A stretch of 64,000 nt of DNA from an uncultured Actinomycetes bacterium (GCA_963841735.1 CAWJDT010000005.1:190944-254943); one strand, 5' to 3'; shown: positions 17,275-64,000, counted from the stretch's first letter. Program-made: numbers and translations. Notes: a model not told the origin generated them from the letters alone.

Positions 17275-18103
17275 CTATGCCGGTCCTAGCAAGTGGACAG
17301 AGGCTGCTTATAGTCCAATTGCGATATCGACCAGATGCCTCGAGAACGTTAGCGTAGGATTAGCCTAGTAGACCTTGAGCCACATATCTCTCTCCTCTCG
17401 TGCGAAAGTCCTCTCGGAAACCCCCGCCCAACGGCGGAGTTCCCGACCCATATGGCCCTTCCTTGTACCCAGAACACCCGGACGGTCCCATTCACCTCCG
17501 GAGTCCCAGCTTCAGACTTGAGCGCCCCATTCGGGCTTCAGTCTATGGCACAAGCGAGCCTGGCTCCAAAAGCCAGTGACCGTATCGTAAGGCCATCTAG
17601 GTCTGATTGTCAATGTATTGAGGTCAAGTTAGAGAAGAGTAATAGAAGTAAGCCGATAGTGAAGTCAATATACGTTGTTTTATGTATAGTCGCTTGCATC
17701 TAAGAGACAACTCTTAGACTCTAAGGCAAAATAACCTGATCTTTCCCAGGCAGGAGCAGGTCACCGGGATATCCTAAGGATGACAGCGATAGCCAGCCGT
17801 AAGCCGAAGATACCAAGGATATCCGCGGAAACCAGGCGGTAGAGGTTGTCCTGGACGGCAGCCGCAATTGCAGGCCCCAGAAACGCCAGCGCGTAGAGCC
17901 AGCATGACCCGACCAACAGTGAAGACCCTCCAACTTGATCTTCCCCCCCACGTTCTCTCCGATAGCGCGGCCATCGGCCCACCCATCGGATAGCCTAAGT
18001 CCGTGTCCCGATATAGGTGGTCATGTACTTCGACGTCCTCAGCATGCGCTGAGCCACGTAGTGAGCACAGACGACGCTAGTTCTAGCTATGGAATCCACG
18101 ACC

Positions 18104-27424: not shown

Positions 27425-27483
27425 GCTAGGTGGCGCGCACCGGCGCTCTCCGGCCCGCGGGGCCCTCGCTAGGTGGCGCGCAC
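27425..27483. repeat. direct duplication of the 3' end/stop region of the cluster-A esterase-RCC1 gene (GCTAGGTGGCGCGCAC x2, 43-nt spacing)
   Basis: Copies at 27425-27440 and 27468-27483; the second contains the TAG stop and the last codons (..PVRAT*). Confidence 0.5.
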
Positions 27484-29853: not shown

Positions 29854-29869
29854 AGTCTTTGGTGGTCTC

Positions 29870-35800: not shown

Positions 35801-35858
35801 ATAGGTGGCGCGCACCGGCGCTCTCCGCCCCGCGGCGCTCCCGCTAGGTGGCGCGCAC
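35801..35858. repeat. same 3'-end duplication downstream of the cluster-B esterase-RCC1 gene (aTAGGTGGCGCGCAC / GCTAGGTGGCGCGCAC)
   Basis: Copies at 35801-35815 and 35843-35858. Conserved between the paralogous clusters although the surrounding sequence has diverged. Confidence 0.5.
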
Positions 35859-38228: not shown

Positions 38229-39202
38229 GATCCGCACCCCACCGACGCAACCGCATTTATCTCCCTCGCCCTGCAGCACAACGCGAAATGCTGGGGCTCT
38301 ATCTCCTCCAGCGCTTGGGGACTTTGGCACCTCTCCTCCACGTACGGGCATCTGGCCGCAAACCGGCAACCCGGCTTGGGATTGATGGGCGACGTGAGCT
38401 CGCCCGTCAGCTCCACCCGCTTCATGGGATGGTCGATGTCAATGGACGGGATCGCCGAGAGCAGAGCCTTTGTATACGGATGCAACGGCTTGTTGAACAG
38501 CTCCTTGGAGGGGCTGGTCTCAACCATCTGGCCCAAATACATAACGCAGATGTTGTCGGAGATATGGCGGACCACCGATAGGTCGTGCGTCACGAACATG
38601 TACGTCAGTCCAAACTCGTCCTGCAGATCCATAAGCAGGTTCAGGATCTGCGCCTGAATGGAGACATCCAGGGACGACACGGGTTCGTCGCAGACCACAA
38701 ACGCGGGATTGAGAGCGATAGCGCGGGCGACGCCAACCCTCTGCCGTCTCCCCCCATCCAGCTCATGGGGGTACGAGTTGCGCAGACGTTGGTCGATGCC
38801 GACCAAGTCCATCAGCCTCGTTACCTCCTTCTCGAGCTCCGCCCTCTTGAAGCGTCCCGAAAGCTTGAGAGGCTGCTGAATGATCTCCCCGATGCTTCGC
38901 CTGGGATTCAGTGAGGAATAGGGGTCCTGGAAGATGATCTGCATGTTGGTACGAAGCCGGTGCAGCTCCTTGCCCTCCACGTGCGTGACATCTTCACCGT
39001 CGAAGAGTATCTGACCGCCCGTGGGCTGCTGCAGATGGATGATCGTGCGTCCGAGCGTGGACTTGCCGCAGCCCGATTCACCGACTACACCCATCGTCCT
39101 GCCCTTCTCAACAGAGAACGTGACGTCATCGACGGCATGCAGCAGGCCGTGCGCCACCTTGAAGTACTTCTTTAGATTTCGGACTTCGACGCTGGCCGTC
39201 AT
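38225..39202 (-). CDS. ABC transporter ATP-binding protein (DppF/OppF-like) (cluster B)
   Basis: Paralog of 29870..30901 (GESGCGKST...[11 protein letters not shown]). Confidence 0.85.
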
Positions 39203-49041: not shown

Positions 49042-49815
49042 CTAGTTGCCCGCAATAGTCCATAGTCTGATGGTTTCTTCCATCCAGCAGGCAGCCGCTT
49101 CCATCATGTTGCCCAGCTCTTCCTTCGGATAGGCGCCATCAGCACGCAGGGGCGGGGGATACATCGGCTCACCGAACACCTGCCTCATCCGCGGGCGATG
49201 CGTGCACTCCGAGCCGTTCCGGCGGTAGCGTTTGGTGAACACGTAGACCATCGGGAGGATGGGTGCCTGGTGGAGACAGGACATGTAGAAGGCACCTGGC
49301 TTGAAACGGTAGATCTCCTGGCTCAGGTAGACAAGATCGCCCTCGGGCAGGAAGAGCACGTGATGCCCGCGGCGCAGCGCCTCGCCCACCGGAGCCGTGA
49401 TCATCTTGAAACCCAAGGCTCTGGCCGGAATGGGAAACGCCCGCACCATGCGGAGTATGCGGCGGACAACCGGCACCTCGAAGTTCCGTTGCGCAACGGA
49501 GATGTAGAGTCTCCGCGGAAACACTGCCGCGCCTGCGAACACCGTGTCAAAGTAGTGGCAGTGGTTGGAGATGACAATACATGCCCTCTTCCGCAGAATG
49601 CGCTTGTTGGCGCGTCCGCTTACCCTTAGCCCAAAGTACACGCCGGCAAGCCCGGCAATGGGATAGAGCAGGAGCATGACCGGGAGCGTGAGAAGTGTGA
49701 ACCACCAGTCGAAGTAGATGTACTTGTACGGCTTGCGAAAATCGAGCTTCTTGGTGTCGTTGGTGACCACGAACAGCTTCTCTTGCGGAATGGTGTTCCG
49801 CTGCCTTTTCTCCAT
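49042..49815 (-). CDS. 1-acyl-sn-glycerol-3-phosphate acyltransferase (PlsC/LPLAT family)
   Basis: NHCHYFD (HX4D) and FLPEG acyltransferase motifs; N-terminal TM. Confidence 0.75.
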   Translation of the reverse strand: MEKRQRNTIPQEKLFVVTNDTKKLDFRKPYKYIYFDWWFTLLTLPVMLLLYPIAGLAGVYFGLRVSGRANKRILRKRACIVISNHCHYFDTVFAGAAVFPRRLYISVAQRNFEVPVVRRILRMVRAFPIPARALGFKMITAPVGEALRRGHHVLFLPEGDLVYLSQEIYRFKPGAFYMSCLHQAPILPMVYVFTKRYRRNGSECTHRPRMRQVFGEPMYPPPLRADGAYPKEELGNMMEAAACWMEETIRLWTIAGN

Positions 49816-49851
49816 GTTGTCGATTGGAAAGATAGAAGTCGGGCGACCCGG

Positions 49852-51006
49852 CTAGGCCATCTGCGGTTCTAGGGTCGGCTCACCGCTCAGGATCTCGCGC
49901 TCGAACTCCGCGTAGATATCCTCCATGAGGTCAAGACATCTCTCAAAGCGATACTGCTCGGCCATTTGCAGGACCTTTGCGCGGGAGGCGCGGAGCTCGT
50001 CCTTGTGCTCAAACCAATAGTCGATCTTCTTCGCAAGGTCGTCCTCGTCGTCCTTGCGGAACATGAACCGGTCGTCCAAGGCAAACTGCGGCGCGGCGCT
50101 ATAGCTGGAATCGCCTATGAGGCACGGAAGCCCACAACCGATGGCCTCAAGACACGAGAGACTCTCCAGCTCGACGATAGAACCGTGCACGTACATGTCG
50201 GCGGTGTTCAGGTACTGCAGCTTCTCTTCGTTGCTGACATAGCGGATGAGCGGCTTGTTGGGCAACTCGTCGCCGAGGCGCACAAGCTCGTCGGTCATCT
50301 CGCCCGTGCCACAGAGCATGAGAGTTATCTTGTCCGCGTACTTTGAGCGTCTGACGCCCCCGATGAGCAGCGACTGCCGCTTCTCAAGGGCATGGCGGCC
50401 GACGTTCATGAGCACCAGATTGTCGCCGTAGAAGTCCGGACGGTCGTATCTGCCGGCCGCGTACTCCCGGGGGATGCCGTTGGACACCACCCGCAGGGCG
50501 CTATTGCAGCCGTGGCCCCAGAGCATATCGGCAGCGAACTGCGAGGGACATTGTACTAGCGGCACACGATTGAAAAGCAGGAAGTTGAACAGCTTGTGCA
50601 CCGTCCACTCCAGGGACTTGCTCTCCTTGCCCATGGCCGAGATGATGTTCTGCGGCTGCACGTGGAACGCGCCCATGACGTTCTTGCCCATCTGCTTGGC
50701 GACCTTGGCCGCCCCGTACCCCAGATAGAACGGGAACTGGATCTGCACCAGGTCTACGTCGGCGAACGCCTTGCGCAGCACGTCTTTCTCGGGGACGCCG
50801 AACATGAAGTCCATCTTGTCCTGTGATTCCTTGGTGCCCGGCAGAAAGAACCCCTTGACCTTGTAGAACCGCTCTTCTTCAAGGGACTTGGTGGCGACAA
50901 TGGTGAACTTGTGCCCACGCTTCTTGAGACCTTCCACCAAGCGCATGGTGGCGATGGTGCCGCCATTGGCCCTGTTGAACGTGTCTACGACGACTGCTAT
51001 CTTCAT
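49852..51006 (-). CDS. glycosyltransferase family 4 (GT1_4-like; glycolipid synthase-like)
   Basis: Probable start MKIAVVVDTF at 51006 after GGAAGGA. C-terminal EX7E motif (ELESLSCLEAIGCGLP). Confidence 0.75.
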   Translation of the reverse strand: MKIAVVVDTFNRANGGTIATMRLVEGLKKRGHKFTIVATKSLEEERFYKVKGFFLPGTKESQDKMDFMFGVPEKDVLRKAFADVDLVQIQFPFYLGYGAAKVAKQMGKNVMGAFHVQPQNIISAMGKESKSLEWTVHKLFNFLLFNRVPLVQCPSQFAADMLWGHGCNSALRVVSNGIPREYAAGRYDRPDFYGDNLVLMNVGRHALEKRQSLLIGGVRRSKYADKITLMLCGTGEMTDELVRLGDELPNKPLIRYVSNEEKLQYLNTADMYVHGSIVELESLSCLEAIGCGLPCLIGDSSYSAAPQFALDDRFMFRKDDEDDLAKKIDYWFEHKDELRASRAKVLQMAEQYRFERCLDLMEDIYAEFEREILSGEPTLEPQMA

Positions 51007-51258: not shown

Positions 51259-52116
51259 CTACCGCTTCGGCCAGACGATATTCCCGCTCCTGTCGATCAT
51301 GGCCTTGTATCCGTCTTCGTGACCAATGCTCACCAAGGCAAGCCCGTCCCTGAACGGCTCGGCCCAGGCGAGGTCCGGCTCGATGGCCCAGGCCCCGGTC
51401 CGGTCGATGAAGCCAAAGACCAGAACGCCGTCGTCGAATAGGCAACAGGCTGCAAGGCCCTCCGTGAACTCCTGAGCCGAGTTGAAACGCGGTTGCACGA
51501 CAACCACTCCTGTCGTATCCAGGTAACCGAACTGATCACCGATGCGGGCGGCCGCCAGGCCCTCGGAGAAGTCGAAGGCCTCATAGAACTGCGGCTGGAT
51601 GACCAGGGCCCCAAAGGTATCGACATAGCCCCACTTGCCCCCAACTCGCACCGCTGCGAGGCCGTCGTCTGTGAAGCTGCGGCCCTCGTCGTATCTCGGT
51701 TCGATCTTCCAGGCCCCGGTCTTGTCGATGTAGCCCCACCTGCCGGAAGCATCCGCCGCCGGACAGAGACCCTCCGAAAACGACCTCTCCATGAAGGCCG
51801 GCGCGTCGCCCGGCCGGATGACCCAGGCCCCGGTCTTGTCTACGAAGCCCACCGGGTACCCGTGCTCCTTCTCATCCAGCACTACACTGGCGACACCCTC
51901 GCTGAAATCCTCGGCACTGAGCAGGGTAGGCTCGATTGCCCAGTCGCTCTGTGGGTCGATGAACCCGCACGGGCCATCTCCCTTCTCCGGCGCCACACAC
52001 GCGAGTCCATCGGAAAACCAGGAGGCATAGGCGAACTGTGGCTCAATGGCCCACGCTCCCGTCCTGTCGATGTAGCCCCACTTGTCCCCTCCAACCAATA
52101 CCGGGTAGAGATGCAC
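51259..52116 (-). CDS. WG-repeat (KWG) containing protein; GTG start immediately follows an in-frame TAA that terminates a lipoprotein leader ORF
   Basis: At least six repeats of KWGY(I/V)D.(T/S)G.W.I.P.F. Same frame as the upstream ORF 52117..52338. Confidence 0.7.
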   Translation of the reverse strand: MHLYPVLVGGDKWGYIDRTGAWAIEPQFAYASWFSDGLACVAPEKGDGPCGFIDPQSDWAIEPTLLSAEDFSEGVASVVLDEKEHGYPVGFVDKTGAWVIRPGDAPAFMERSFSEGLCPAADASGRWGYIDKTGAWKIEPRYDEGRSFTDDGLAAVRVGGKWGYVDTFGALVIQPQFYEAFDFSEGLAAARIGDQFGYLDTTGVVVVQPRFNSAQEFTEGLAACCLFDDGVLVFGFIDRTGAWAIEPDLAWAEPFRDGLALVSIGHEDGYKAMIDRSGNIVWPKR

Positions 52117-52338
52117 TTAGGTCGTCTGCGAGTCGGTGGACGTGGTTGTGGCCGCACCTGTCGTCGTGGTGGCGCTGACTATGGTGGTCGTAGAATGGGA
52201 AGTGGTCGTCGTGGCCAGGATGGTGGTCGTGGGCTCTTCGCAACCGGCAGCCAACCCAGCGCCTACTCCCATACAAACTGTGATTACCGCGGCCGACAAC
52301 GCGATCGCCAGTCTTCTCATCGAATCCCCCCTCGGCAA
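52117..52338 (-). CDS. lipoprotein signal peptide + Thr-rich linker ORF (73 aa), probably the severed N-terminus of the WG-repeat protein
   Basis: MRRLAIALSAAVITVCMGVGAGLAAGC lipobox, then a TTTxxTTTT linker ending ...TDSQTT-TAA, followed in frame by VHLYPVLVGGDKWGYID. Confidence 0.4.
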   Translation of the reverse strand: MPRGDSMRRLAIALSAAVITVCMGVGAGLAAGCEEPTTTILATTTTSHSTTTIVSATTTTGAATTTSTDSQTT

Positions 52339-52531
52339 CGTCTACCCCCCCAACACGCTTGAGTATAGGCAGATTCGGGTTCGAGTCAACCGGCGCTGGA
52401 TGCTGGACAGCTGGACCCCCAGGCGGACCTAACTGGACAACTTTTGAACTTTTCCGTCAAGGTCCAACAGCTACTTCAGCGCTCCTCGACGGCGTCCTGA
52501 TCGGCCTGAGGCGCCAAAGACCCGCAGGCGT

Positions 52532-54682
52532 CTAGACACGCAATAGCCCTTCTCCGACAAGGAACTCCGCCCCATTTCCCATTCCGTAGTCCAGAAGCTC
52601 GTCGCTGAAGGAGCCCTTGAGAGCGCAGAAGTACACCTGCGCGCCGATCCTCCTGGCCATCTCGACAATCCGCGTGGCTTGGTCGAGTTTGAGTGAATCG
52701 GCCGTCCGTTTACATTCTGCGACGAGTCGTTCTGGGCCGAAGCCGAAAAAGACGTCAAAGTCCACGGTTGGTGCGCCGGGCACCGTGACATCCAAGCCTG
52801 GCCAATAGGCCATTTGAAGAGCACTCCGGTCACGGGGCGTGAAACGGCGAACTGCCGCCAAGACTGGGAGCAAGTCGTTGTCCATCATTGTTTCAGCCAA
52901 ACCATCCAGCCTAAGGTAAGACTTGGCTTCTAGTCCGTCCCCTTGAAGCAGCGGCAGGGTGAATTCAGCCCGACAGGCAAGGCAACGCATGACGTCATCA
53001 AGATCAGAAATCGGATAGAACTCCTTTGCCCCGCATTCCTCGCACTGGTAGGTTCTCCCTCGCCTGACTAGACCTGTCGCCAAGAGTCTCTCTAGAAGCG
53101 GCGCGATGTCCGCTCTGGCGAAGCCAATTTGTGACGCGATGTCGTCCAGCGTCTTGGTATTGGGCCGAAGAAGGATCAACTCGTTCTTGACCGTGTCCTG
53201 GATAAACCGGTCAAAGCCTTCAGGCTCCTCGCACTTGGCGTCCTTGAGCGCTTTAGAGATGCTCGCCTCAACCTTGCGCCTGGCGAGAGAGGCGAGATTC
53301 TCGAAGATGGCGATGGCCAGGGTGTTGGTCAACACAGACAAGCCTTCAAGTCCTCCAACTCGGTCAATGACGGCCCGCGCAAACCTTCCTGGGGGAGTAA
53401 TCTCGGCGCTCAAACCTAGGTCCTGCATGTAAGCATTCAGGGCCTCATCCGGGTCTAAGACTCTCAGCTTGAGATCAAAAGAGCGACTCGGAGACTGAGT
53501 GCGAATGCAGAACCTCCCTTGGTAGGCGTAGCCGTTTTGCTGAATCTTGGCTGCAGCTGATCTCGTAACCGGGAAGGGATTCGGCCAGGTCACCTCCAAC
53601 ACGACGCTGTTGCTGTATTTAGCCGCAAAGCCTTTAGGTACCCCGAATCGCATGGTGTTTTCCCCACGCCGCAATGCAGCGAGATCGTCGGCAAACAGAC
53701 CGCGTCTGAGCTGCCCTCCCGGGAGATATCCCGCAAACGCGAATTCGAGCGCGCGCTGCTCGCTTGCTGCCGGTCCTCTAAGCTGTTCAGTCCGAGTTTC
53801 CTCTGGCACCTCAACCATTCCAGCGGCGACTAGCTCCTGTCTGGCGGAATCCCGAATAGAGGCCGCCGCGAATATGCGCACATCCGGCTTCTGGCGAAGC
53901 CGCGACTCCGCGGCAATCCACTTGACCATCTCCGCGACAACCGCCTGCTCCTTGAGAAAGCCGACCGGCATGATAATCAGTTGCTCACGGCTACCCCAGC
54001 TCACCACGCGGGAGCGATAGTTCCAGGCCGTGCACAGGTCATCAAAGCTGTCCGTCTGGACGACGTAGATGAATCTGTCATAAGCGGGAGAGACTTGCTC
54101 ATGTAGGTCGATCAGGCGGACTGATTGCGCGAGCGGCGAGACGCCAGAGGTTTGGCCGTCAAGCAGCGCGAGCTTCGCTGCCAATTCAGTTGGGGCCGCA
54201 CGCAAAGAGAAGGCTTCTTCATACGCTCCTCGATCTCCCGGATTCAGCGAGCCCCAGATGATGGTTTCGACATCTGGCAGAGGATCTTCATTGACGGAGG
54301 GAATAGTGAGCAGGTACTTCGAGGAAGAGTCTCCCGAGAGCCAGAGATTCAGCGGATGAAGATACCAGTCCGTTAGCTTCGGGTGAATCTGCTGGACATT
54401 GATTCGTGGAAACAGCTCTCGGATTGCTGCCGCCGAGAACGCAGAGTGATAGAAGACTGTCTCCACATCGCGAATCGCGGTATAGGCGCCAGTAGCGGGG
54501 TCCATTTCTGGCGTCCCCTCCGAGACCGGAATCACGAGAGCGTTCGCTCCGTTCCAGATTTCCGAGGCATTTCGGGCAACACTGGCTAGGGCCGAGATAT
54601 CTCCTCGCGGAATGACAAACCCCAGTTCGGGTCCCCGGAGGCCATACGAGATTCGCTGCTGTGATAGCTCACCTTGCCCCAT
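52532..54682 (-). CDS. large hypothetical protein (716 aa) with winged-helix-like segment, CxxC...CxxC zinc ribbon and C-terminal PD-(D/E)xK-like nuclease motif; candidate defence gene
   Basis: LDDIASQIGFARADIAPLLERLLATGLVRRG (wHTH-like); YQCEECGAKEF...RCLACRAEF (Zn ribbon); DFDVFFGFGPERLVAECKR (D...ExK). No P-loop. Reduced GC. Confidence 0.5.
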   Translation of the reverse strand: MGQGELSQQRISYGLRGPELGFVIPRGDISALASVARNASEIWNGANALVIPVSEGTPEMDPATGAYTAIRDVETVFYHSAFSAAAIRELFPRINVQQIHPKLTDWYLHPLNLWLSGDSSSKYLLTIPSVNEDPLPDVETIIWGSLNPGDRGAYEEAFSLRAAPTELAAKLALLDGQTSGVSPLAQSVRLIDLHEQVSPAYDRFIYVVQTDSFDDLCTAWNYRSRVVSWGSREQLIIMPVGFLKEQAVVAEMVKWIAAESRLRQKPDVRIFAAASIRDSARQELVAAGMVEVPEETRTEQLRGPAASEQRALEFAFAGYLPGGQLRRGLFADDLAALRRGENTMRFGVPKGFAAKYSNSVVLEVTWPNPFPVTRSAAAKIQQNGYAYQGRFCIRTQSPSRSFDLKLRVLDPDEALNAYMQDLGLSAEITPPGRFARAVIDRVGGLEGLSVLTNTLAIAIFENLASLARRKVEASISKALKDAKCEEPEGFDRFIQDTVKNELILLRPNTKTLDDIASQIGFARADIAPLLERLLATGLVRRGRTYQCEECGAKEFYPISDLDDVMRCLACRAEFTLPLLQGDGLEAKSYLRLDGLAETMMDNDLLPVLAAVRRFTPRDRSALQMAYWPGLDVTVPGAPTVDFDVFFGFGPERLVAECKRTADSLKLDQATRIVEMARRIGAQVYFCALKGSFSDELLDYGMGNGAEFLVGEGLLRV

Positions 54683-54801
54683 GCCGACGTTCCTCCTGAA
54701 GAAAGTAGCCGCCTTGCCGAGCTAGCTGGGCAGTGCCAAGCATAGCGCGACCTCAGCTGGACGACAGCCAGTAATACGCTTAGCTATCCGATAAGTCGCG
54801 A

Positions 54802-56004
54802 TCACCGGGAGGCGCGGAATCCAAAGGCTGTGTTGGTGCTGCCTGGCACACTGCCCAAATCAAGGTTAAGCACGCCCGCTTGGCCGCCATCGCTCCAACG
54901 GCCGCCACGCCGAAAACCACGTAATGATGCGTCGCTAACTGAGCTATACAGCTGGCCAACACCTTGGCTAGAGTTCCAAGTGTCTGAACCAGACAAGCCG
55001 ATACTTCTAGGGAGAGGATTTGCCGGCAAGGAGCCCGGCTCTGTCACGGCGGTCCATTGCTTCCAGGCGAAGGCGCCTTCTCCAGTAATGCCCGGCTGGC
55101 CGCCGGTCGTCTGGCCAGCTGTCCATTCCGAGACATTACCTGCAAAGTCCCAGATTACTTCTCCGTTCGTGAGAGTGAGCGTACGGCTCTGGTTGCCGCT
55201 AGCGCTTCCAGTGCCGTAGTAGCCGTTAGAGTCGTTTGAATCGGCTGCCAGGGCGTTTGTCGGATCATTGTCATTGTGTCCCGAGTAGATATAGCCGGAG
55301 CCGACGCTCCCGCCGCTCCAGTTGCTGGCGACGGCCAAGACGTTCTGGGCGACTGTCATCCATTCGGCTTCGGTAATCAGGTGGCAGCCGTCGCAACCGA
55401 CAACATTGGAGCTGTAAGCAGCGGCATTGGTCTGGTTGATGCTGACCCAGGGTGCGCCGGAGGCTTGTGAAACGGGGACGGTGCCTCCGGCGTTCTTGGC
55501 TTCATACTTCATGAGGCAGAAGTCATTGGTGCCGTACGTGCCACTGCCAGGAACCGGTATGAAACCGGAAGGACAGGCCGAGCCAACCGATGAGCCGCTG
55601 CCGGTGGTGGCTATGGCCGGGGCGGTCATGTCGGTAACGGAGTAGCTGGCAGTGCCGTTGGTACTGGTCAAGTGGAAGGTCTTGCCGGCTATCTGGCTGT
55701 AGACCAGCGTGTTGCCCAAGCTGGTCTTCAGGCAGTAGTTGGCATCTACAGTGGGCGCGGTTGGGCAGTTGCTGCCGTCCAGCGACGTGGGGTAGGAACC
55801 ATAGAGCGTGTTGTAGTTCTTGAGCAGGGTTGAGGCATTGGCCAGGTCAGACTGCAGAGAGCTGACCTTGGCCCTATTGGATATACCTGAATAGGAAACG
55901 ATGGTTATGGCGGCCAGGATGCCGATGACGACAATGACAACCAGAAGCTCGACGATGGTGAAAGCAGGACGTCTGGTTGGAAACAGCTTATCTATAATAC
56001 GCAT
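54802..56004 (-). CDS. prepilin-type N-terminal methylation/cleavage motif protein with C-terminal FGE-sulfatase (SUMF1/DUF323)-like domain
   Basis: N-terminus RRPAFTIVELLVVIVVIGILAAI is a class-III signal / pseudopilin helix. C-terminus ...LRGFRRGGRWSDGG...TAFGFRASR resembles the FGE-sulfatase domain end (RGGSW...GFRcar). GC ~50%. Confidence 0.55.
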   Translation of the reverse strand: MRIIDKLFPTRRPAFTIVELLVVIVVIGILAAITIVSYSGISNRAKVSSLQSDLANASTLLKNYNTLYGSYPTSLDGSNCPTAPTVDANYCLKTSLGNTLVYSQIAGKTFHLTSTNGTASYSVTDMTAPAIATTGSGSSVGSACPSGFIPVPGSGTYGTNDFCLMKYEAKNAGGTVPVSQASGAPWVSINQTNAAAYSSNVVGCDGCHLITEAEWMTVAQNVLAVASNWSGGSVGSGYIYSGHNDNDPTNALAADSNDSNGYYGTGSASGNQSRTLTLTNGEVIWDFAGNVSEWTAGQTTGGQPGITGEGAFAWKQWTAVTEPGSLPANPLPRSIGLSGSDTWNSSQGVGQLYSSVSDASLRGFRRGGRWSDGGQAGVLNLDLGSVPGSTNTAFGFRASR

Positions 56005-56122
56005 CTATGAATAGAGTTTATGCTTAAGCTGCATTGAGAGCAATACTTCGCCTGTTATGGTTGTGGATAAGTCAGCCGTATAGCTAGACTGGGCGAGCCT
56101 GCACGGCGTCTATAATGAAGGC

Positions 56123-57370
56123 ATGACAGACAATCAAAACAACCCTCCCTACCAGTCGGCCCTCGATATTCCATCGATTGCGAAAATGGCCGACGAGCTG
56201 CAGACTGCCGGAAGGCTGACGCGTGTGTTCGGGCGAAAGCATCGCGCGGAGATCTTGAAGATCGAGGCCCAGCTGCATCGGCTCGTTGGGATCGTCGATC
56301 GCTTCTATGCCCTGTTGGGGCCTCGTCACTGGATCTTTCACGACCGGTTGAATGTCGAACAAATCGCGGACCTACTCGACCTGCCGGTGGACGAGGCCGA
56401 GCGCAGACTAATTGAGCTGTACATGGAGCCCGAATCTCTCCGATTCGCGATTCTCGGACTGAACCATTTCCCAGCCATGCGATTACGCATGCATCTGTTG
56501 GAACGAGCCGAGAAGGATTACCACGAGAAGCGCTACTACTCGACCGTCCTCGTGCTGCTGGCCGTCATGGATGGATTCGTGAACGATTTCGAGAACCAGC
56601 ATCGAGGTCTGCACACGCGGTCCGAGGAGGAAATGAGCGCATGGGATAGTGTCGTCGGGCATCACCTCGGCCTAACGAATGCTCACAGGACCTTCACGAA
56701 GAGCACATCAAAGACGAGCGATGAAGAGGTCTTCGATCTCTATCGGAATGGCATCGTCCACGGCACTATCGTGAACTTCGACAATGACGTCGTGGCAACC
56801 AAGGCGTGGAACCGGCTTTTTGCCGTCTGTGACTGGGCAACTAGCGAGGAACGCCGCCGAGTCGAGCCCGAAGCAGAGCCGACTTGGCGAGAGCTATTTG
56901 CACAGATGGCCGAGAACCAGAAAGCCAGAAAAGCGCTAGATGAGTGGAAGCCGTCGGTGCTGGAGGCTGGAGCGCCCGGACTGGAATCCAACGAGGTCTT
57001 TGTTAGGGCGAATGAGTACCTCTCCCTCTGGAAGCGGGGCAACTACGGCCGCATGGCTCCGTTCCTGTCCAAGCTCGTCGCGGAAGACTCGGACAAAGCC
57101 ACTGCCGGGATGATTCGCACGGAGTACAGCACCTTCCCGCTGACGGCGTTCACCATCACTGCAGTCAGGCATGACGTGCCGGCAATCTGTGAGGTCGAAG
57201 CGGAGCTGGAGTTCGGTCCTGAGCGCAAGAGTGCGCGCATGCAGTGGAACCGAGAGGGCGACGACTGGGTGCCGGTATCACCAAACCAGCCAGGTGAGTG
57301 GCGACTGGTGCGTTGGGGTCCTCTCGCCATGATGCAGCCCGAACCAGCTGGCGAGGACGAGACGAGCTAG
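56123..57370 (+). CDS. hypothetical protein (415 aa), the only plus-strand gene in the island
   Basis: Clean ORF with moderate GC and no recognisable motifs. Its stop overlaps the convergent OLD-family gene by 4 nt. Confidence 0.45.
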   Translation: MTDNQNNPPYQSALDIPSIAKMADELQTAGRLTRVFGRKHRAEILKIEAQLHRLVGIVDRFYALLGPRHWIFHDRLNVEQIADLLDLPVDEAERRLIELYMEPESLRFAILGLNHFPAMRLRMHLLERAEKDYHEKRYYSTVLVLLAVMDGFVNDFENQHRGLHTRSEEEMSAWDSVVGHHLGLTNAHRTFTKSTSKTSDEEVFDLYRNGIVHGTIVNFDNDVVATKAWNRLFAVCDWATSEERRRVEPEAEPTWRELFAQMAENQKARKALDEWKPSVLEAGAPGLESNEVFVRANEYLSLWKRGNYGRMAPFLSKLVAEDSDKATAGMIRTEYSTFPLTAFTITAVRHDVPAICEVEAELEFGPERKSARMQWNREGDDWVPVSPNQPGEWRLVRWGPLAMMQPEPAGEDETS

Positions 57371-59256
57371 TCCAATACTCTGACGTGCTCCAGCGTGATT
57401 GACAGACAGTCGGGTATCTTGCCACCGGCAAGCAAGCAGGCATCGTGGTATGTCCAAGCATCCTTGCCAGCGAATCCAAGCCCTTGTGATACGAGTTCGT
57501 CCCTAGCCGCAACCCACTCCGGCCAGGAATCGTGAACTAGCGCCTCCAAGGTCGGCTCATTGAAGAATAGACGATCGGCCACCTTCCCTGAGGGCCAGTC
57601 GATTTCGCTGCAGCCGAAGAACTTCAGCAGTTTGCGGTTCCAGGACTTGGTGTTTTCTATACTCGACTCCAGGTCTTTTTCGCGCTTGGAGTCAGCTGCG
57701 GCCTTTGCTTCAGCCAGCTTATCCTCAAGTTGTCGATCGTTGTCCACGACAACTACTGCGGGTACTCCCAGCCGCTCCAAGATTACGAATGGCAGGAGCA
57801 CGCCCGTCTTACCTCCGCATTCTGCGACGCACACTCCGTTGCTGACCAAGCTCTGCACTAGCTCCGAAGCACCATTGAACATGCCTCTGTCCGTCGAGCC
57901 CTCTACAAGAAGAACCCTATCAGCGAACAGCGCCTCGGCTAGAGAGCCCATGCACACGCCATCGAGCTGGCGCTTGACGCTTGGTTCATCCACGTAGCAA
58001 TCTAGGCGCGCTAGCACCTTGTCCACGGAAGATCCCGAAACTGACACCGCGCCTTGACTGCCGCCGCCTGAACGGCTGACCCGCCTGATCTGATGAAAGG
58101 CCCGGGGTTCTATGAAATATGGGCTATGAGTTGCGTATGCGACTTGCACGCCCTGGTCAGGGTTCTTCGCTAGATCACGCAGGACCGACGCAAAGTTGCG
58201 AGCCTGCAGGGGATGCTGAAAGAGTTCGGGCTCCTCAATTGCGAGGCAGATCGTGCCTTGCTCTCCCTTGCCCTTTCCGCGCTCAGCCAGCAGCTGAAGA
58301 GCTGAGATCAACAGGGCGCGCTGGAAACCGTGTCCCTGTCTTTCCACGGTTGTCTCAGTGTCGTCGTCCATGATCTTGACTTTGAACTGCGCCTTTTGCT
58401 GCGGAATTGCTAGGTCCTGCGCGCTGACCTGAACTTCGCGCCCTGAAGTGAAGGCGGACACGGCCGAGGTCATCCTCTCGGAAAGCTCCTTGAGCTGCTC
58501 TCCAAAATGCTTACCGTGGATGTCTGCCTGCTCAGCAGCCACCTTAGCCATCAACTCGGCAAGGTCGGCGTCCGCGCCAGACCGATCGACCGCTTGTTCG
58601 AGGACGCGGCCGATTATGGCATTTCGGTTGTCTTGTGCTTGTTCGCTCGCGCGCAGGTCGGCGGTTACAAAGACGTAGTCGAAAAGACCCGTCATTACAA
58701 ATTGGCCGTTGAAACCGAACAGGTGAGTGGTCGATGAGATATCAACATCTTCTAGCTTATCGGGGTTGTCTGCTTCCCACTGATCCAGCGCGGTCAGCCG
58801 CCCGGCATCGTTCCGAACCGATGGAAGCCCGAGGTCGGGGCGAGCAACTCTTAACTCGTCATATCGCTCCCCACGTTCGGTTGCGTTAATCCCCTCACGA
58901 ACACTCGCGAACTCCGGCCGGGCTCTGCCCTTTCCATAGAGCTTATCTTTGCCGTCTTGCCAATGCTTCCAGAGGGTTACAGCGTCTCTCCCTGGTACGG
59001 CATAGCGACCTAGTGCTTCCCGATCCTTGTCTGTCAACCCAGCGAACTCGACTGACACTTCAATTTGCTTTTCTTCCGCTCCCGAGAAGACATCGTCCTC
59101 GGTAATAGTGCCGCCATTGAAGAACCAATCAAGAGCTCGCAGAATGGTAGATTTCCCGACTCCATTCGGCCCGATGAAAGTCGTTACATCGTCGAAGTCG
59201 ACAGCGACGTCGTCTAGGCAGCGGAAACCGACGATGTGAACCTTCTTGATTCGCAT
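57367..59256 (-). CDS. OLD-family ATP-dependent endonuclease (N-terminal ABC-type ATPase + C-terminal Toprim), class-1 single-gene type
   Basis: MRIKKVHIVGFRCLDDVAVDFDDVTTFIGPNGVGKSTILRALDWFFNG is the characteristic AAA_15/OLD N-terminus with Walker A. C-terminal Toprim with VLLVEGSTD and VVVVDNDRQ. Confidence 0.8.
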   Translation of the reverse strand: MRIKKVHIVGFRCLDDVAVDFDDVTTFIGPNGVGKSTILRALDWFFNGGTITEDDVFSGAEEKQIEVSVEFAGLTDKDREALGRYAVPGRDAVTLWKHWQDGKDKLYGKGRARPEFASVREGINATERGERYDELRVARPDLGLPSVRNDAGRLTALDQWEADNPDKLEDVDISSTTHLFGFNGQFVMTGLFDYVFVTADLRASEQAQDNRNAIIGRVLEQAVDRSGADADLAELMAKVAAEQADIHGKHFGEQLKELSERMTSAVSAFTSGREVQVSAQDLAIPQQKAQFKVKIMDDDTETTVERQGHGFQRALLISALQLLAERGKGKGEQGTICLAIEEPELFQHPLQARNFASVLRDLAKNPDQGVQVAYATHSPYFIEPRAFHQIRRVSRSGGGSQGAVSVSGSSVDKVLARLDCYVDEPSVKRQLDGVCMGSLAEALFADRVLLVEGSTDRGMFNGASELVQSLVSNGVCVAECGGKTGVLLPFVILERLGVPAVVVVDNDRQLEDKLAEAKAAADSKREKDLESSIENTKSWNRKLLKFFGCSEIDWPSGKVADRLFFNEPTLEALVHDSWPEWVAARDELVSQGLGFAGKDAWTYHDACLLAGGKIPDCLSITLEHVRVLD

Positions 59257-59421
59257 ACATGTCTCCCTTCAGCTACCCGTGTTCTGCTCCCGTTGGCCGT
59301 TCGGCTTAGCCAAGTGCTACGTTTCGTCATCATCTGCGACCCATTATATGAGCACGAACGTTTGTTCGCAATCGCATGGACTCGGTGCGGGCTCCAATGC
59401 GTGCCGACAGCTTCAGGTTGT

Positions 59422-60303
59422 TCACCGTTTTGGAAACAGCCCGCCAAAGAGGAGTCCGAGATACAAGAACGCCATGTCCTCATCGTCGTCCCTGTACGCG
59501 TCAAGAGCCTTCCTGGCCCTGCCCGCCGCCGTCTTGAGCTTCGACAGAGCCTCTGAATGCTTGGCTTCACTTGAACAGGGGTGGATTCTTCCGCAGGCAC
59601 CCTTGGGGTCGTTCATGGCAGCGAGTTCATGGCCTTCGAGACTCTCAAGGATCAGGCACAGGTCAAAGACGTGGATATAGAGAGACTGCTTCGCTACGTG
59701 CTGCGCAGCGCGCATCTCCAGATAGAACGAGGAAATCGGGACGTTTAAGTAGTACTTCCACGCTTTAAGCAGTCGCGCGAGACCCTTTGCATCGCCCTTG
59801 TGCGGCTTTTCATTACATTCATTCACGTAGGCAAGGTGCTCATAAGGCGCGGAATCAATCCAGCCGCTTCCAACGCTGGGGCCTGGGATGTCGTACACCA
59901 ACTGACCGGGGCCACCTCTACCCGTGAGGAAGGCGGGGATGACTTCCCACGTCTCAGCTCCTCCAGCGAATCTCACAGCTACCGCCGGTCGGCGAATCGT
60001 GACCTCGGTCGAGGGGAATCTCTTCGAAAGCGCATCCTTCACCCACTCAAGAGCTGTGTACGACGATTCCGGCTTCGAGTCCTTCAGCCGCACCACGGCA
60101 TCGACATCGCTATAGAACCGAATGCCTGTTCCGTGCGAGAAGGAGCCAGTCTCGAAGAAGTTGGCGACGCTTAGATTGTCTTCAAGAGCGGCCTTGACCG
60201 ATGCACGGTGGGATGCGGCAGCGCTGCGCTCCGTTGCCGTAGGAGTCAGCCCGGATAGGAAGTCTTCAAAAGCCTGGCTCACAGTCCGCGCCATACGATT
60301 CAC
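59422..60303 (-). CDS. CD-NTase / SMODS-like nucleotidyltransferase (copy A)
   Basis: Motifs TGSFSHGTGIRFYSDVDAVV (GS...[DE]h[DE] pol-beta-type NTase core) and later WIDSAPYEH; N-terminal helix MARTVSQAFEDFLSGL typical of SMODS/CD-NTase proteins. ~290 aa. Confidence 0.6.
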   Translation of the reverse strand: MNRMARTVSQAFEDFLSGLTPTATERSAAASHRASVKAALEDNLSVANFFETGSFSHGTGIRFYSDVDAVVRLKDSKPESSYTALEWVKDALSKRFPSTEVTIRRPAVAVRFAGGAETWEVIPAFLTGRGGPGQLVYDIPGPSVGSGWIDSAPYEHLAYVNECNEKPHKGDAKGLARLLKAWKYYLNVPISSFYLEMRAAQHVAKQSLYIHVFDLCLILESLEGHELAAMNDPKGACGRIHPCSSEAKHSEALSKLKTAAGRARKALDAYRDDDEDMAFLYLGLLFGGLFPKR

Positions 60304-61182
60304 CTATCCATATGCTGGAAAATCATCGCCAAGTATGATTCCCCATAGCCTTATGGCTTCTTCATGATCTCCGTCTCGCTGCGCCTCGATTGCATCTGAG
60401 GCCCGGCCGTGAGTTGAAGAAAAAGACTGCTTCAGGTCTGATTCTTGGAGGGGAGTGAGGCTCGCCCCAAGATCGCCGCCATAGCCGTCCGGGTCCTGAA
60501 CGTGGATGTAGCCCCCGGCCCATTCGAAGAACTTCTGAAGTCCTATCGCATGGTTACTACTCATGGTTGAAAACGCAGCCCCGACCATTGCCTCAAGGTG
60601 CCATGAGCCGAGCCGCTTGCTGTGTTCGTTGTTCCATCGCTTAAGAATTCGCACCCGTCGTCTGAACTGGCCAGACAAGGCCGTATCGCGGTCCTGAGCC
60701 CACTGCTCCTGCTTTGGCGGGTCCGTCTTTATCCAGGAACCGTCACCAGCCGGCAGGAAATAGCCTCCACTATTCACGCCGAAGACCGGCGCGATATCGA
60801 CGTGTAATCCGTCTTTGTAGAAGAGCCTGACTGCTTGGCCTCGTGCTCCAACTTGTTGCACTTCAGTGCGGGCGTCTATCCTGCGTGTAACCCAGTAAAG
60901 GAAGCTTTGAGAGTCGTGCCGGTACTTCTCGAAGACCTGATTCTTGTTAGTAAAGACAGCCAGAACGTCTATGTCATCGAGCGGACGAATCATCGTTCCT
61001 CGTGCCCCGGACCCCATCAACCGACTGGTCTTGAGTGGTACGTCGCAGTCAGCGGGGAATGACTCATCCAGCAGTTCCTTGACCCGAGCCGCTCGACTGA
61101 CCATCGTCACTCGCTGCGCCTCGGTCAAGACGATCGCAGCTGCGAATTCCTTGAAGGCTTGCTCAACCGTCCTGGCCATCGC
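60304..61182 (-). CDS. CD-NTase / SMODS-like nucleotidyltransferase (copy B, paralog)
   Basis: MARTVEQAFKEFAAAI...MGSGARGTMIRPLDDIDVLAVF; same architecture as copy A. Start at MARTV (61182), 20-nt overlap with the upstream 4TM gene. The stop abuts the start of copy A. Confidence 0.6.
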   Translation of the reverse strand, partial: AMARTVEQAFKEFAAAIVLTEAQRVTMVSRAARVKELLDESFPADCDVPLKTSRLMGSGARGTMIRPLDDIDVLAVFTNKNQVFEKYRHDSQSFLYWVTRRIDARTEVQQVGARGQAVRLFYKDGLHVDIAPVFGVNSGGYFLPAGDGSWIKTDPPKQEQWAQDRDTALSGQFRRRVRILKRWNNEHSKRLGSWHLEAMVGAAFSTMSSNHAIGLQKFFEWAGGYIHVQDPDGYGGDLGASLTPLQESDLKQSFSSTHGRASDAIEAQRDGDHEEAIRLWGIILGDDFPAYG

Positions 61183-62068
61183 TTGCCCCCGGCCCGATGT
61201 TTCTCGCCGCATACTGCATGTCTTCTTCGAAAGAAGGAACAAGTGCCTTGTAGAACCATTCTGGAACTAGCGGAGCAATCTTGCGCAGCCGGAATATTCC
61301 GTCCTGCAGCTCCCTCAACGGTTGCACCTCGCCAGGGAGGTGGGAGAGAAGGCTATCAACCTCATCCTCCAACAACTGGCGACTACCAGCAGCCTGAAAA
61401 TGCTCGCGCGCTAGTTCGCAAGCGTCCAGCAACGCTGGCAGCGAGGGCAACGCGATGGTTGTAAGGTAAGCCGCCAGGGTCGCGTTGCCAGTCAAAGCAA
61501 GTGCAACACCGGCTAAGAACCAGAGCACCGCCGCGCCTGCCAGCACCCACGCGTAGGCGTAGTGCTGTCTGCGAGCCCATACTGCATTGGATCTCAGGCA
61601 GATGAGGACCGAATCGGGCCAAGCGTGCGCTGCCTGCGTTGGATACCAATCGCGTACGGAGGCAAAGGGCGCCTCTCCCTTGCTCGCGTTCCGTATCTCC
61701 TCTGCGGGAATTGGCTTGCCAAGGACTGGGTTCCATGGCAACCCGAGGACATCGCAGTCGAACATCTCTTGCGCGAGCGCGCCTTTGATCCGACATCGGT
61801 CACGCCATGGACTAATCAGAACCCGGGAGACGAAGATCCAAACTCCGGCGAGGGCTCCGAGAAGCGGCCCGTAGGTCGGAGCGATAAAGAAGATCAACGG
61901 CGCGACTAGCGCAAGCAAGAGTGCCACTGAACGTCCCGCAAGTTGCATCCGTTTTGCTCGTCCGTAGTAGCAGCCCGCCGCAGTTTGGCGACGGAGGTTA
62001 GCTTCGCTCCTCTGTCTGCATCCGATGTCGGCCATGGTCGGACGACGTTCCACAAAACGATGAGTCAT
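61163..62068 (-). CDS. four-transmembrane-helix protein (S-4TM-like; candidate membrane effector)
   Basis: TM1 SVALLLALVAPLIFFIAP, TM2 GPLLGALAGVWIFVSRVLI, TM3 YAWVLAGAAVLWFLAGVALAL, TM4 TLAAYLTTIALPSLPALL. Its ATG overlaps the methyltransferase TGA (ATGA). Confidence 0.55.
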   Translation of the reverse strand: MTHRFVERRPTMADIGCRQRSEANLRRQTAAGCYYGRAKRMQLAGRSVALLLALVAPLIFFIAPTYGPLLGALAGVWIFVSRVLISPWRDRCRIKGALAQEMFDCDVLGLPWNPVLGKPIPAEEIRNASKGEAPFASVRDWYPTQAAHAWPDSVLICLRSNAVWARRQHYAYAWVLAGAAVLWFLAGVALALTGNATLAAYLTTIALPSLPALLDACELAREHFQAAGSRQLLEDEVDSLLSHLPGEVQPLRELQDGIFRLRKIAPLVPEWFYKALVPSFEEDMQYAARNIGPGASDGQDG

Positions 62069-64000
62069 GCAGTCTTCTTCCGCTCACCGTTTGAGTGCCA
62101 GGCGAAGCCGCTGAGGTCGCGAACGGAACCGATTGTTGTGAGCAGCTGCGCGTTAGCAATGACCCGCTCGTCGTTCAGCGACAGCTTGATTCCGGCTTCG
62201 CTCATCCGCCGTATCTTCGACGCTGCTGAGCCAAGAGCATCCGACCTGGCGGCCGGGCGCGTTCCTTCATCCTTCCGGCAGACGACTATGGCGTCAATCT
62301 GAATGGGGCTCTTCGCCTGCGACTTCGGAGTCGCCCCGGACATCTCGGACTTGACGGGATGAGCATTGACGACGACGAAGCCGGATTCGACCACGGCCCT
62401 CGCTACGGAGTCCCATCCTTCGTCTCGCGAATGATGGTAGGTGAAAACCAGGAGCCCCGAAGGCTTCAAGACACGATGGCACTCGCGAAAGACGGAGGCC
62501 AGCTTATGGCTAAACAATGTCGCTTGCGCGTCTTGGACTTCCCCGGCGGAACGAGTGCTGCCGGATTCCTTGACGAAGCCTCGCGGAGTCAGTTGTTGCC
62601 AGGCATAGAAGAAATCGGCGAGTTCGGAATAGTGCACGTTATCGAAGAAGGGCGGATCGGTCACGACGAGGTCAATACTGCTGGCAGGAAAGCCGGTTTC
62701 GCTGGAATCGCCGCACGAAAGATAGATCGCTCGTCCGCTCCTGTCGCCGTTAAGGGGAGTGTCCATGTGGACTTGTCCAGCAAAGGCCGCCGAACACTGC
62801 ACTGCCTGGCCACTGCTAGAACCAACGATCTCCAAGGGATTGCGCCGGTAACTGATCGCTTTCAGCAGACGACCAGCGAACAAGCCCGAAAAGCTTCCGG
62901 AACTCTTCGAGGTTCCCCATATGTTGGCCTCAATTGGTGTTCGTTCCGGCTTCAAGATGTGATGAGAGAACATATGTCGGACTGCGCCGGTGCCTTCGCC
63001 CTTGTATGAGGCGAACATGTTGTTGAATTCGAGAGCGCCGGAGAACAAGAGCAACAGGGCATCTCTCGATTCGGTGTCTTTCACTTCGGAAATGGCCCGA
63101 TGCAGCTTCGCGAGTCCCAGCAGTTGCCGATCGTTGTGGAAGTCTCGCCAGCGCTTGAACCCGTAACTAATGGCCTGACGGGTATTGTTGCCATCCGCGA
63201 GTTCCAACGAGGGAACGGATAGAGCACCTTGCTCCAATTCTCGCTTCAGCTCGCTGGAGCATTCCTCGTAGCGCGCCAGATCCTGCGCGTTTGCGGCCAA
63301 GTACTCCTTGCGTCCCTCCCGCGTCAGGACGAGCTTGGCATACAAGCGAAACGACGACGGAGCCTCCCCAGATAGCGTGTCAAGCACTCGAAAGTCGTTG
63401 CGGCAAGAAGGGCAAGTGGCCGAGCGACCGTTCACAACGCCAACGTCCTGGTTGAAGTCGTGTCCGCAGCGATCGCAAGTCGCGTCCGGCTGATCGTATC
63501 TGCCCTCAAAGATTTGGTCGCATTTCGGGCAAAGCACTTGGACTTCTGGCTTTCGACGCGGATAGGCGTTCCGCGCAAATACCCAAGAGGAAAAGAGATC
63601 AACAGTGCTTCGACAGGTTGGACAGCCGGCCTGCATCACCCAGAAGTAGTAGAGAACCTCGCACTGTTCGCCCCTGCTGTCTTCCGAGGCGTACATAGCG
63701 CGAAGCTCTTCACCAACAGAGGCTGAGAGCGAATCAAAGGCTCTTCGCAGCTTGATTTCGTCCAGCCCACCCAATGCCACTCGCACTGCCTCAGCCGCCA
63801 CCGGGTTGATGTCGCGACCTACTGCGGTGAGCCCGAGCTTGTGAGCTTCTCCGATTGTAGTTCCAGACCCCATGAAAGGGTCAAAGGCAGTAACGCCTGC
63901 GTAGTCTTGCCTGCGATAGAACTCGCTCCGCAAGTCGCTATCGGCCGGAAGGAGGCAGCCGAGAAGGATTCCCCGGAACACGGAACCGAGCCTTTTCGCC
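62065..64000 (-). CDS. DNA methyltransferase (N6-adenine/N4-cytosine class) with inserted multi-CxxC zinc-ribbon region; 5' end lies beyond the window
   Basis: AdoMet motif I DPFMGSGTTIGEAHKLGLTAVGRDINP; catalytic motif IV DLVVTDPPFFDNV; four CxxC pairs between them (CPTC...CPKC...CDRC...CPSC). No stop upstream before position 64000. Confidence 0.7.
   Translation of the reverse strand, partial: AKRLGSVFRGILLGCLLPADSDLRSEFYRRQDYAGVTAFDPFMGSGTTIGEAHKLGLTAVGRDINPVAAEAVRVALGGLDEIKLRRAFDSLSASVGEELRAMYASEDSRGEQCEVLYYFWVMQAGCPTCRSTVDLFSSWVFARNAYPRRKPEVQVLCPKCDQIFEGRYDQPDATCDRCGHDFNQDVGVVNGRSATCPSCRNDFRVLDTLSGEAPSSFRLYAKLVLTREGRKEYLAANAQDLARYEECSSELKRELEQGALSVPSLELADGNNTRQAISYGFKRWRDFHNDRQLLGLAKLHRAISEVKDTESRDALLLLFSGALEFNNMFASYKGEGTGAVRHMFSHHILKPERTPIEANIWGTSKSSGSFSGLFAGRLLKAISYRRNPLEIVGSSSGQAVQCSAAFAGQVHMDTPLNGDRSGRAIYLSCGDSSETGFPASSIDLVVTDPPFFDNVHYSELADFFYAWQQLTPRGFVKESGSTRSAGEVQDAQATLFSHKLASVFRECHRVLKPSGLLVFTYHHSRDEGWDSVARAVVESGFVVVNAHPVKSEMSGATPKSQAKSPIQIDAIVVCRKDEGTRPAARSDALGSAASKIRRMSEAGIKLSLNDERVIANAQLLTTIGSVRDLSGFAWHSNGERKKTA

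Follow-up and report, generated by a model that had tools for sequence, protein, structure and literature searches.

Type I CBASS (signaling against phages by cyclic oligonucleotides) operons of the 4TM kind are minimal, combining a SMODS/CD-NTase (cGAS/DncV-like nucleotidyltransferase) cyclase that has an intact active site with a transmembrane effector, and one of them, the E. coli CdnD12-4TM operon, has been tested (bioRxiv 10.1101/2023.05.21.541620). Class 1 OLD nucleases such as phage P2 Old join an N-terminal ABC ATPase to a C-terminal TOPRIM domain in a single polypeptide, have no partner gene, and have relatives on prophages. Other described systems that bear on the present locus are type II restriction-modification systems whose methylases are Zn-ribbon proteins of the COG1743/DUF1156-like kind, the CARF-nuclease effectors of type III CRISPR systems (Card1, Can2, Cdn1, and VC1899), and the C6orf70 HEPN family (DUF4209), which is reported in restriction-modification-related operons (Anantharaman et al., 2013, PMC3710099). 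Here we describe a block of genes with resemblances to all of these, positions 52401-64000, that makes up the last 11.6 kb of a 64,000-nt stretch from an uncultured Actinomycetes bacterium (GCA_963841735.1 CAWJDT010000005.1:190944-254943), referred to below at its full length as the window. We consider it likely that 52.4-64.0 kb, with 0.6 kb or more past the window end, represents a chromosomal defense island of an uncultured soil actinomycete, assembled by horizontal transfer and forming not one system but a mosaic of anti-phage modules that are independent of each other.

Gene content, composition, and left junction

The block holds eight genes with hardly any spacing (gaps of at most 211 nt), all on the minus strand except the gene for a 415-residue protein, p415 (Table 1). 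Within 11.6 kb lie at least three recognized defense modules, namely the restriction-modification methylase, the type I CBASS, and the OLD nuclease, each matched by Pfam or PADLOC models, together with two nuclease-like candidates, p415 and the 716-residue p716, and by gene content this is a defense island, as the initial annotation had called it. The left side carries genes for a PucR-type regulator, a histidine kinase, an ammonium transporter, a major facilitator superfamily (MFS) transporter, two peptide-type ABC transporter operons, and LysR regulators, followed by a DUF6777 protein, an acyltransferase, a family 4 glycosyltransferase (GT4), and a WG-repeat lipoprotein. This is ordinary chromosome, and the switch that had been described, from housekeeping and transport genes on the left to defense-like genes on the right, is found as claimed.

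A compositional change accompanies the change in gene content. GC is 61.7% over the whole window, 62.6% for positions 1-52400, and 57.5% for 52401-64000, where 1-kb windows range from 0.554 to 0.598; the 11.6-kb stretch of minimum GC in the whole window begins at 52301. The drop and its location thus agree with the initial annotation, although its size, given there as 65-70% falling to 50-58%, had been overstated. Total GC alone cannot set the block apart, because it is equally low (0.56-0.60) at 38-46 kb; the transporter genes there keep a native G+C content at third codon positions (GC3) of 0.75-0.80, so that low GC in that region reflects amino-acid composition and is native. The GC step is modest and codon usage, at p about 2e-7, gives the clearer signal. 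GC3 averages 0.788 (standard deviation 0.050) in 42 left genes and 0.654 (standard deviation 0.032) in the eight right genes (Mann-Whitney p = 2.5e-7), and every gene right of 52.4 kb (8/8) falls within 0.61-0.72. The fit to a native codon table, computed leave-one-out, is 0.305 bits/codon on the left versus -0.005 in the block (p = 1.8e-7). Tetranucleotide signatures point the same way, the block correlating with the left part at 0.65-0.68 and supplying the least native chunks, versus 0.73-0.91 for left chunks, values that are inflated by the left chunks belonging to the reference.

The compositional step begins at one intergenic gap, the codon-usage switch falling between the two genes that flank it. 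The native WG-repeat gene has a promoter-like site on the minus strand, at 52389-52362, and this narrows the junction to ~52390-52531 and places the break at 52.39-52.53 kb. An independent 12.9-kb contig (read set ERR15459710) corresponds to window positions 51710-64603, starting inside the WG-repeat gene, with the same gene order and identical proteins; since it was assembled separately and spans the junction, the junction is not an assembly artefact. In this contig the operon runs at least 600 nt beyond 64000, as expected from the earlier statement that the right border lies outside the window. The same annotation had seen no intact tRNA or integrase at the left border, and indeed ARAGORN finds no tRNA in the whole 64 kb and no integrase is present within the block. 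No Rfam family was matched in the window and no repeats of note were found at the left junction; the sole recombinase in the window is an insertion sequence (IS)-type rve transposase at 18154-19053. A tRNA remnant at the border was considered and rejected: the string GGTTCGAGTC at ~52379 resembles a T-loop, yet the sequences on its two sides are unable to pair, and nothing is reported there by ARAGORN.

Table 1. Features of the block and its left junction, with positions counted from the first letter of the window.
Feature	Position	Strand	Matches and remarks
Left junction	52321..52531	.	211-nt intergenic gap, between 52320, where the WG-repeat lipoprotein gene starts, and 52532, where the first island gene stops
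p716, 716 aa	52532..54682	-	Predicted alpha/beta N-terminal region, winged helix, Zn ribbon, PD-(D/E)xK nuclease
Pilin-like lectin-fold protein	54802..56004	-	N_methyl 6e-5; FGE-sulfatase 1.5e-3 (below Pfam cut-off); phrog_2889 4e-11
p415, 415 aa	56123..57370	+	HEPN-like helical N-terminal and NTF2-like C-terminal domain; convergent with OLD
OLD-family nuclease, ABC-type ATPase fused to TOPRIM	57367..59256	-	PADLOC Old 1.1e-56; AAA_15 4.5e-43; OLD-like_TOPRIM 1.4e-13
CD-NTase 1, 290 aa	59422..60294	-	PADLOC Cyclase PDLC00776 4.7e-117; Pfam SMODS 2.8e-15
CD-NTase 2, 291 aa	60304..61179	-	PADLOC Cyclase PDLC00823 1.9e-87; Pfam SMODS 1.2e-15
S-4TM membrane effector	61163..62068	-	Pfam S_4TM 2.4e-70; PADLOC 4TM Effector 2.9e-70
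N6/N4 DNA methyltransferase with Zn ribbons	62065..64000, cut by window end	-	N6_N4_Mtase 1.2e-13; phrog_10183 1e-92

Modules of recognized types

The methylase, 704 residues when complete (P0122), would start at ~64179 by mapping onto the independent contig. Its translation contains an S-adenosylmethionine (AdoMet)-binding motif, DPFMGSGTT, and a catalytic DPPF motif (TDPPFF), as befits the methyltransferase of a type II restriction-modification system. More than 5400 homologues were found, and relatives at ~60% identity occur in Planctomycetota, Acidobacteriota, and Acetothermia. The closest relative (P0123, 81% amino-acid identity, locus L046) and a 60% relative (locus L047) are each preceded by a gene for a 263-267-aa protein; in L046 this gene runs 17 nt into the methylase gene, and in L047 the two adjoin without a gap. 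The two partner proteins are 65% identical to each other, match no Pfam or PADLOC family, and share the motif SYPDF...GYE(I/L)KG, a PD...E-x-K nuclease signature. The partner-methylase pair also occurs on mobilizable plasmids of Actinomycetota and Alphaproteobacteria, namely a Tomitella plasmid of MOBF type and an 8.2-kb Tabrizicola plasmid of MOBQ type, much of which consists of the pair.

In the gene table of the independent contig, a 146-aa gene fragment overlaps the start of the present methylase by the same 17 nt. This overlap suggests that an endonuclease gene lies just outside the window, at ~64163 onward, and that the methylase is the second gene of a predicted two-gene type II restriction-modification module. 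The module shares with type II systems having COG1743/DUF1156-like Zn-ribbon methylases the AdoMet and DPPF motifs, an occurrence on small mobilizable plasmids, and, to judge from its relatives, a translationally coupled upstream partner of ~265 aa with a PD...E-x-K signature. Unlike those systems, it has a methylase that scores far under the DUF1156 model cut-off (121 versus 1000 bits), and in this copy the partner is known only as the 146-aa fragment outside the window. Membership in a BREX, MADS, Hma, or DUF1156 anti-phage system was rejected: matches to the PglX, DUF1156, and HmaB models are confined to the catalytic core (in PglXI, for instance, to residues 477-622 of 919), DUF1156_antiphage scores the 121 bits just given, and the partner genes are absent.

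The CBASS genes follow the methylase without a break. The end of the methylase gene and the beginning of the S-4TM gene share 4 nt, the end of the S-4TM gene and the beginning of cyclase 2 share 17 nt, and cyclase 2 is separated from cyclase 1 by 0-9 nt, depending on the choice of start codon. How this arrangement arose is suggested by L046, whose DNA is 78.6% identical to the window from 64000 down to exactly 62065, the methylase stop, where the homology ends; the flanks are entirely different, and the L046 methylase runs 15 codons further than that of the window. The end of homology at the methylase stop indicates that a CBASS cassette was joined onto the 3' end of a methylase gene. Neither L046 nor L047 nor the two plasmids has a CBASS beside the endonuclease-methylase pair. 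The idea that the methylase is itself a CBASS component was therefore set aside, methylase relatives occurring without CBASS and CBASS relatives without the methylase. The result is a clean, datable junction at which a CBASS cassette was attached to a restriction-modification methylase right at its stop codon, both systems now being co-transcribed.

The two cyclases belong to different subfamilies, as they match different PADLOC models, and their catalytic motifs read GSFSHGT/SDVDA/WEVIP and GSGARGT/DDIDV/HVDIA. Cyclase 2 is canonical (GS, DID, D), and cyclase 1 has GS, DxD, and a Glu at the third acidic position. This Glu is kept in all relatives of the cyclase 1 subfamily, including those that are the sole cyclase beside an S-4TM gene, and its presence in single-cyclase relatives shows it to be characteristic of the family, with no loss of activity implied. 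Both cyclases are, by these motifs, catalytically intact. No Cap2/Cap3 (E1/E2/JAB) or HORMA/TRIP13 gene was found among all eight genes scanned, which assigns the system to type I CBASS; cyclases with their catalytic residues and an effector in the same operon complete the picture. It shares with the E. coli CdnD12-4TM type the minimal combination of cyclase and transmembrane effector, here an S-4TM protein, and SMODS/CD-NTase cyclases with intact active sites. Unlike that type, it has two cyclases of different subfamilies per effector, opens with the effector gene, and is joined as a cassette to a methylase stop.

The two-cyclase layout is found elsewhere. Among 21 metagenomic loci with S-4TM relatives, two (L020 and L021) have one cyclase of each subfamily beside S-4TM. 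The order in L020 is S-4TM, cyclase-1-like, cyclase-2-like (54/68/50% identity), and that in L021 is cyclase-2-like, cyclase-1-like, S-4TM; the remaining loci in which a cyclase stands next to S-4TM have a single one, of either subfamily. Recurrence of the layout in rearranged order suggests that the pairing of two cyclases is selected, for a purpose that the layout does not indicate. Two cyclases serving one effector could provide redundancy, two triggers, or two signals. No published account of two-cyclase CBASS operons was found in the literature searched, which lacked two key surveys; the original SMODS and CBASS surveys are said to mention such operons.

In the OLD-family protein an ABC ATPase is fused to a TOPRIM domain, which is the class 1 arrangement. 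Its Walker A motif, GPNGVGKST, is intact at residues 29-37, and a promoter-like site lies at 59371-59343 in the 165-nt gap upstream of the gene. Homologues at 41-44% identity occur on 11 IMG/VR viral contigs of prophage type. No helicase, AriB, or reverse transcriptase gene lies beside OLD, its neighbors being cyclase 1 and p415, and no retron RNA was found in Rfam. Gabija, PARIS, and retron Eco8, which represent OLD classes 2-4, were considered and rejected, their respective partners (the UvrD-like helicase GajB, the DUF4435 TOPRIM protein AriB, and a reverse transcriptase with its ncRNA) being absent and the GajA, AriA, and Eco8 scores weaker or of partial length. The gene fits a stand-alone, class 1-like OLD as judged from its domains and surroundings. 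With phage P2 Old it shares the order of its ATPase and TOPRIM domains, the single polypeptide, the lack of a partner gene, and the presence of relatives on prophages. Unlike P2 Old, it is chromosomal, lies in an actinomycete island, and is 41-44% identical to the viral relatives found; a role in phage exclusion is predicted.

Two nuclease-like candidates and neighboring genes

The protein p716 has no Pfam, PADLOC, NCBIfam, or PHROG family. A word-indexed search retrieved only p716 itself, and phmmer retrieved 591 cluster representatives, mostly of ~720 aa and 25-34% identical to it. Across this family C547, C550, C567, C570, D643, E656, and K658 are invariant. Individual members match Hjc, NERD, Card1_endonuc, and HTH models, and the family profile weakly matches Z-alpha-type winged helices and Hjc. 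An AlphaFold2 model (predicted local distance difference test score (pLDDT) 88, predicted template-modeling (TM) score 0.83) was compared with the Protein Data Bank by Foldseek, where all 14 matches with E <= 0.001 are the CARF-nuclease effectors VC1899, Cdn1, Can2, and Card1 (E 6e-6 to 6e-4; probability 0.95-1.0). These alignments span 539-578 columns, gaps included, with root-mean-square deviations of 15-18 A and TM-scores of 0.15-0.38. TM-scores this low indicate that rigid superposition covers ~150 residues, roughly the nuclease domain.

With the type III CRISPR effectors p716 would thus share a C-terminal PD-(D/E)xK nuclease that follows alpha/beta and helical domains; unlike them, it is almost twice their length and adds a winged helix and a four-Cys Zn ribbon. 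CARF models gave no sequence match to p716, and a CARF-like sensor in its N-terminal region, suggested by the modeled fold, is a lead and not a result. We regard p716 as a candidate stand-alone defense nuclease. Two homologues were placed in their surroundings, one lying beside a Qat-like system and the other beside MmeI together with a primase, an excisionase, and an integrase; neither has a cyclase or a CRISPR locus beside it. The first of these neighborhoods (L048) also contains, at 409-2322, a family-less 637-aa protein directly upstream of the closest full-length p716 homologue and beside the Qat-like system (KAP NTPase ... TatD). This protein is unrelated to the pilin-like gene that holds the same position in the window.

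We also considered that the two cyclases make different signals, one of which opens S-4TM while the other acts in trans to switch on p716, 5 kb away. We regard this as a long shot. If true, the island would contain a two-signal, two-effector CBASS, and p716 would come from a family not yet recognized as a cyclic-nucleotide receptor.

The second candidate, p415, has more than 1000 homologues at ~50% identity, chiefly in soil actinobacterial metagenomes, none of which has a Pfam domain. The invariant residues R208, G210, H213, and G214 lie in the sequence RNGIVHG (R208-x4-H213), which fits the R-x4-6-H motif of HEPN RNases. In an AlphaFold2 model (pLDDT 82) the C-terminal part resembles the curved sheet of the PBP2a N-terminal domain and ketosteroid isomerase, and the best viral fold match of the protein is a DUF4209 protein (E 1.9e-3, probability 1.0, TM 0.44). 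Neither PF13910 nor any other HEPN model matches p415 at the sequence level. The motif region is itself modeled poorly, so that a HEPN assignment is probable at most, and p415 is a candidate RNase of the abortive-infection kind. It shares with the C6orf70/DUF4209 family the invariant R-x4-H and the fold match just given; unlike that family, it has an extra NTF2-like C-terminal domain and no PF13910 match. Elsewhere the neighborhoods of p415 vary and are of the kind usual in defense islands, with SLATT, TIR, DUF6119, an antirepressor, or an ImmA-type peptidase with HTH. A partnership of p415 with OLD was rejected, since its homologues have other neighbors and none is adjoined by OLD. No relatives of p415 were found on viral contigs.

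Between these two genes lies the pilin-like gene, which has foreign codon usage (GC3 0.68). The protein has a prepilin N-methylation signal, a GspG-like N-terminus (3e-10), and a C-terminal domain with a sub-threshold resemblance to FGE-sulfatase, of C-type-lectin fold. It was rejected as the target of a diversity-generating retroelement, because the window contains neither a repeat of its 3' end nor a reverse transcriptase, and as a partner of p716, because p716 homologues have unrelated genes upstream. A remnant of its 3' end, ~32 codons with the stop codon included, is present in L046 at 2410-2508 (corresponding to window 54802-54900), ~350-400 nt upstream of the endonuclease-like gene. Its position hints that the two genes traveled together in the past.

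Several features of the left side deserve mention in their own right. In the WG-repeat lipoprotein gene (51259-52320, minus strand), a TAA at 52117-52119 parts the signal peptide and a Thr-rich linker from the in-frame WG repeats. The call for this gene on the independent contig begins at the identical position, so the in-frame stop is probably real, and the gene could be a pseudogene, a split gene, or read through. A second compositional anomaly of the window lies at 16630-19053, where a membrane open reading frame (16630-17274) with foreign codon usage (GC3 0.59) is followed by a non-coding stretch of 54% GC at ~17.3-18.1 kb and then by the rve transposase gene, whose codon usage is native. 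The GT4 and acyltransferase genes (49042-51006) form a pair that is flanked by different genes in each of four related metagenome-assembled genomes (MAGs; loci L001-L015), and relatives of the GT4 at 54-62% identity occur in Bacteroidales MAGs; despite native codon usage, the pair looks like a shuffled or transferred cassette. Finally, 27469-29877 and 35844-38369 encode two large, secreted paralogues that both combine an esterase Ig-like domain with RCC1 repeats. Both adjoin peptide-type ABC transporter operons, in what looks like a duplicated locus.

Probable horizontal origin and proposed biological meaning

Acquisition of the block from elsewhere is indicated by three lines of evidence taken together: foreign composition, a mosaic junction, and a scattered distribution of the modules. 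GC3, codon fit, and tetranucleotide signature all deviate, as they do in genomic islands. The methylase DNA has its counterpart in L046 amid different flanks, restriction-modification pairs of this kind reside on plasmids, OLD relatives lie on viral contigs, and homologues of p716 and p415 sit in other defense islands or integrative elements. A horizontal origin, as the initial annotation had proposed, is therefore well supported, but only indirectly.

Several observations weigh against a horizontally assembled defense island. First, the GC shift is modest, at 5 points, and weakly expressed native genes can show low GC3 too. Second, as far as the window reaches, the block is bordered by no integrase or transposase gene, no tRNA, and no att repeat, its right end lying beyond. 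Third, the four related uncultured Actinomycetes MAGs (GT4 80-89% amino-acid identity; GT4-anchored contigs, one genome per species) have only the GT4-acyltransferase pair in common with the window. They are without the block within 10 kb of GT4, but they are also without any other synteny with the window or one another, so that for want of a collinear site they have no bearing on its presence or absence. Finally, the roles proposed for p415, p716, and the pilin-like gene derive from motifs and weak-to-moderate fold matches, with low TM-scores for p716 and a HEPN motif region in p415 that is modeled with low confidence.

Instead of being a free-standing chromosomal island, the block may be carried as cargo by some larger mobile element that has integrated (an integrative island, a prophage, or an integrative and conjugative element) and has its core genes beyond 64 kb, a real if minority possibility. 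The prophage-type contigs that carry OLD homologues, the match of the methylase to a phage family (phrog_10183), the p716 homologue within an element that has a primase, an excisionase, and an integrase, and an operon that runs on beyond the window end all speak for such a vehicle. On the other hand, the 11.6 kb contain no phage structural, replication, or conjugation genes, relatives of p415 are absent from viral contigs, and a megablast of the block against plasmids gave no matches. This explanation is compatible with a horizontally assembled island and differs from it in vehicle only.

Native ancestry is much less probable. A fast-evolving variable region of the chromosome could owe its low GC3 to weak expression and relaxed codon selection, and the small GC difference, the lack of a mobility gene at the border, and the equally atypical left gene at 16630-17274 would all suit it. 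However, the change is a step and not a scatter, since eight of eight consecutive genes are under the native range from one intergenic gap onward. Moreover, methylase DNA 78.6% identical to that of the window lies on a contig with unrelated flanks, the ~60% methylase relatives belong to the groups listed above, and the other modules occur in unrelated contexts; native ancestry is accordingly unlikely. Although the source is a metagenomic contig of 318.6 kb, the composition changes abruptly, and the native border gene has an in-frame stop, an assembly or binning artefact joining two organisms at ~52.4 kb is highly improbable, because the separately assembled contig crosses the junction and continues over the whole block with identical proteins.

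Domain content, intact catalytic motifs, close packing of the genes, foreign composition, and the occurrence of every module elsewhere among other neighbors are seen directly, whereas anti-phage activity, the kind of signal, and the route of acquisition are inferred. Taking a horizontally assembled defense island as the likely explanation, we hypothesize that its modules would act independently. In the restriction-modification pair, the methylase would mark the cell's own DNA and the predicted endonuclease would cut unmarked incoming DNA. On infection a cyclic (oligo)nucleotide, produced by one CD-NTase or by both, would open or activate the S-4TM membrane protein, so that the infected cell dies ahead of phage release. 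The OLD ATPase-TOPRIM nuclease may act alone from its own promoter, as phage P2 Old does. The convergent HEPN-like gene, p415, would probably supply a toxic RNase of the abortive-infection type, and p716 may bind DNA and act as a PD-ExK nuclease with a Zn ribbon, its large N-terminal region serving as the sensor.

This is a typical composite defense island, an ordinary case of bacteria stacking anti-phage systems in blocks of foreign DNA, and the known systems in it are members of recognized types. Its interest is modest and limited to p716, p415, and the two-cyclase CBASS joined to a restriction-modification operon. The families of p716 and p415 are absent from Pfam and PADLOC v2, and guilt by association marks both proteins, the one with its 591 cluster representatives and the other with its more than 1000 homologues, as candidate single-gene defense systems.

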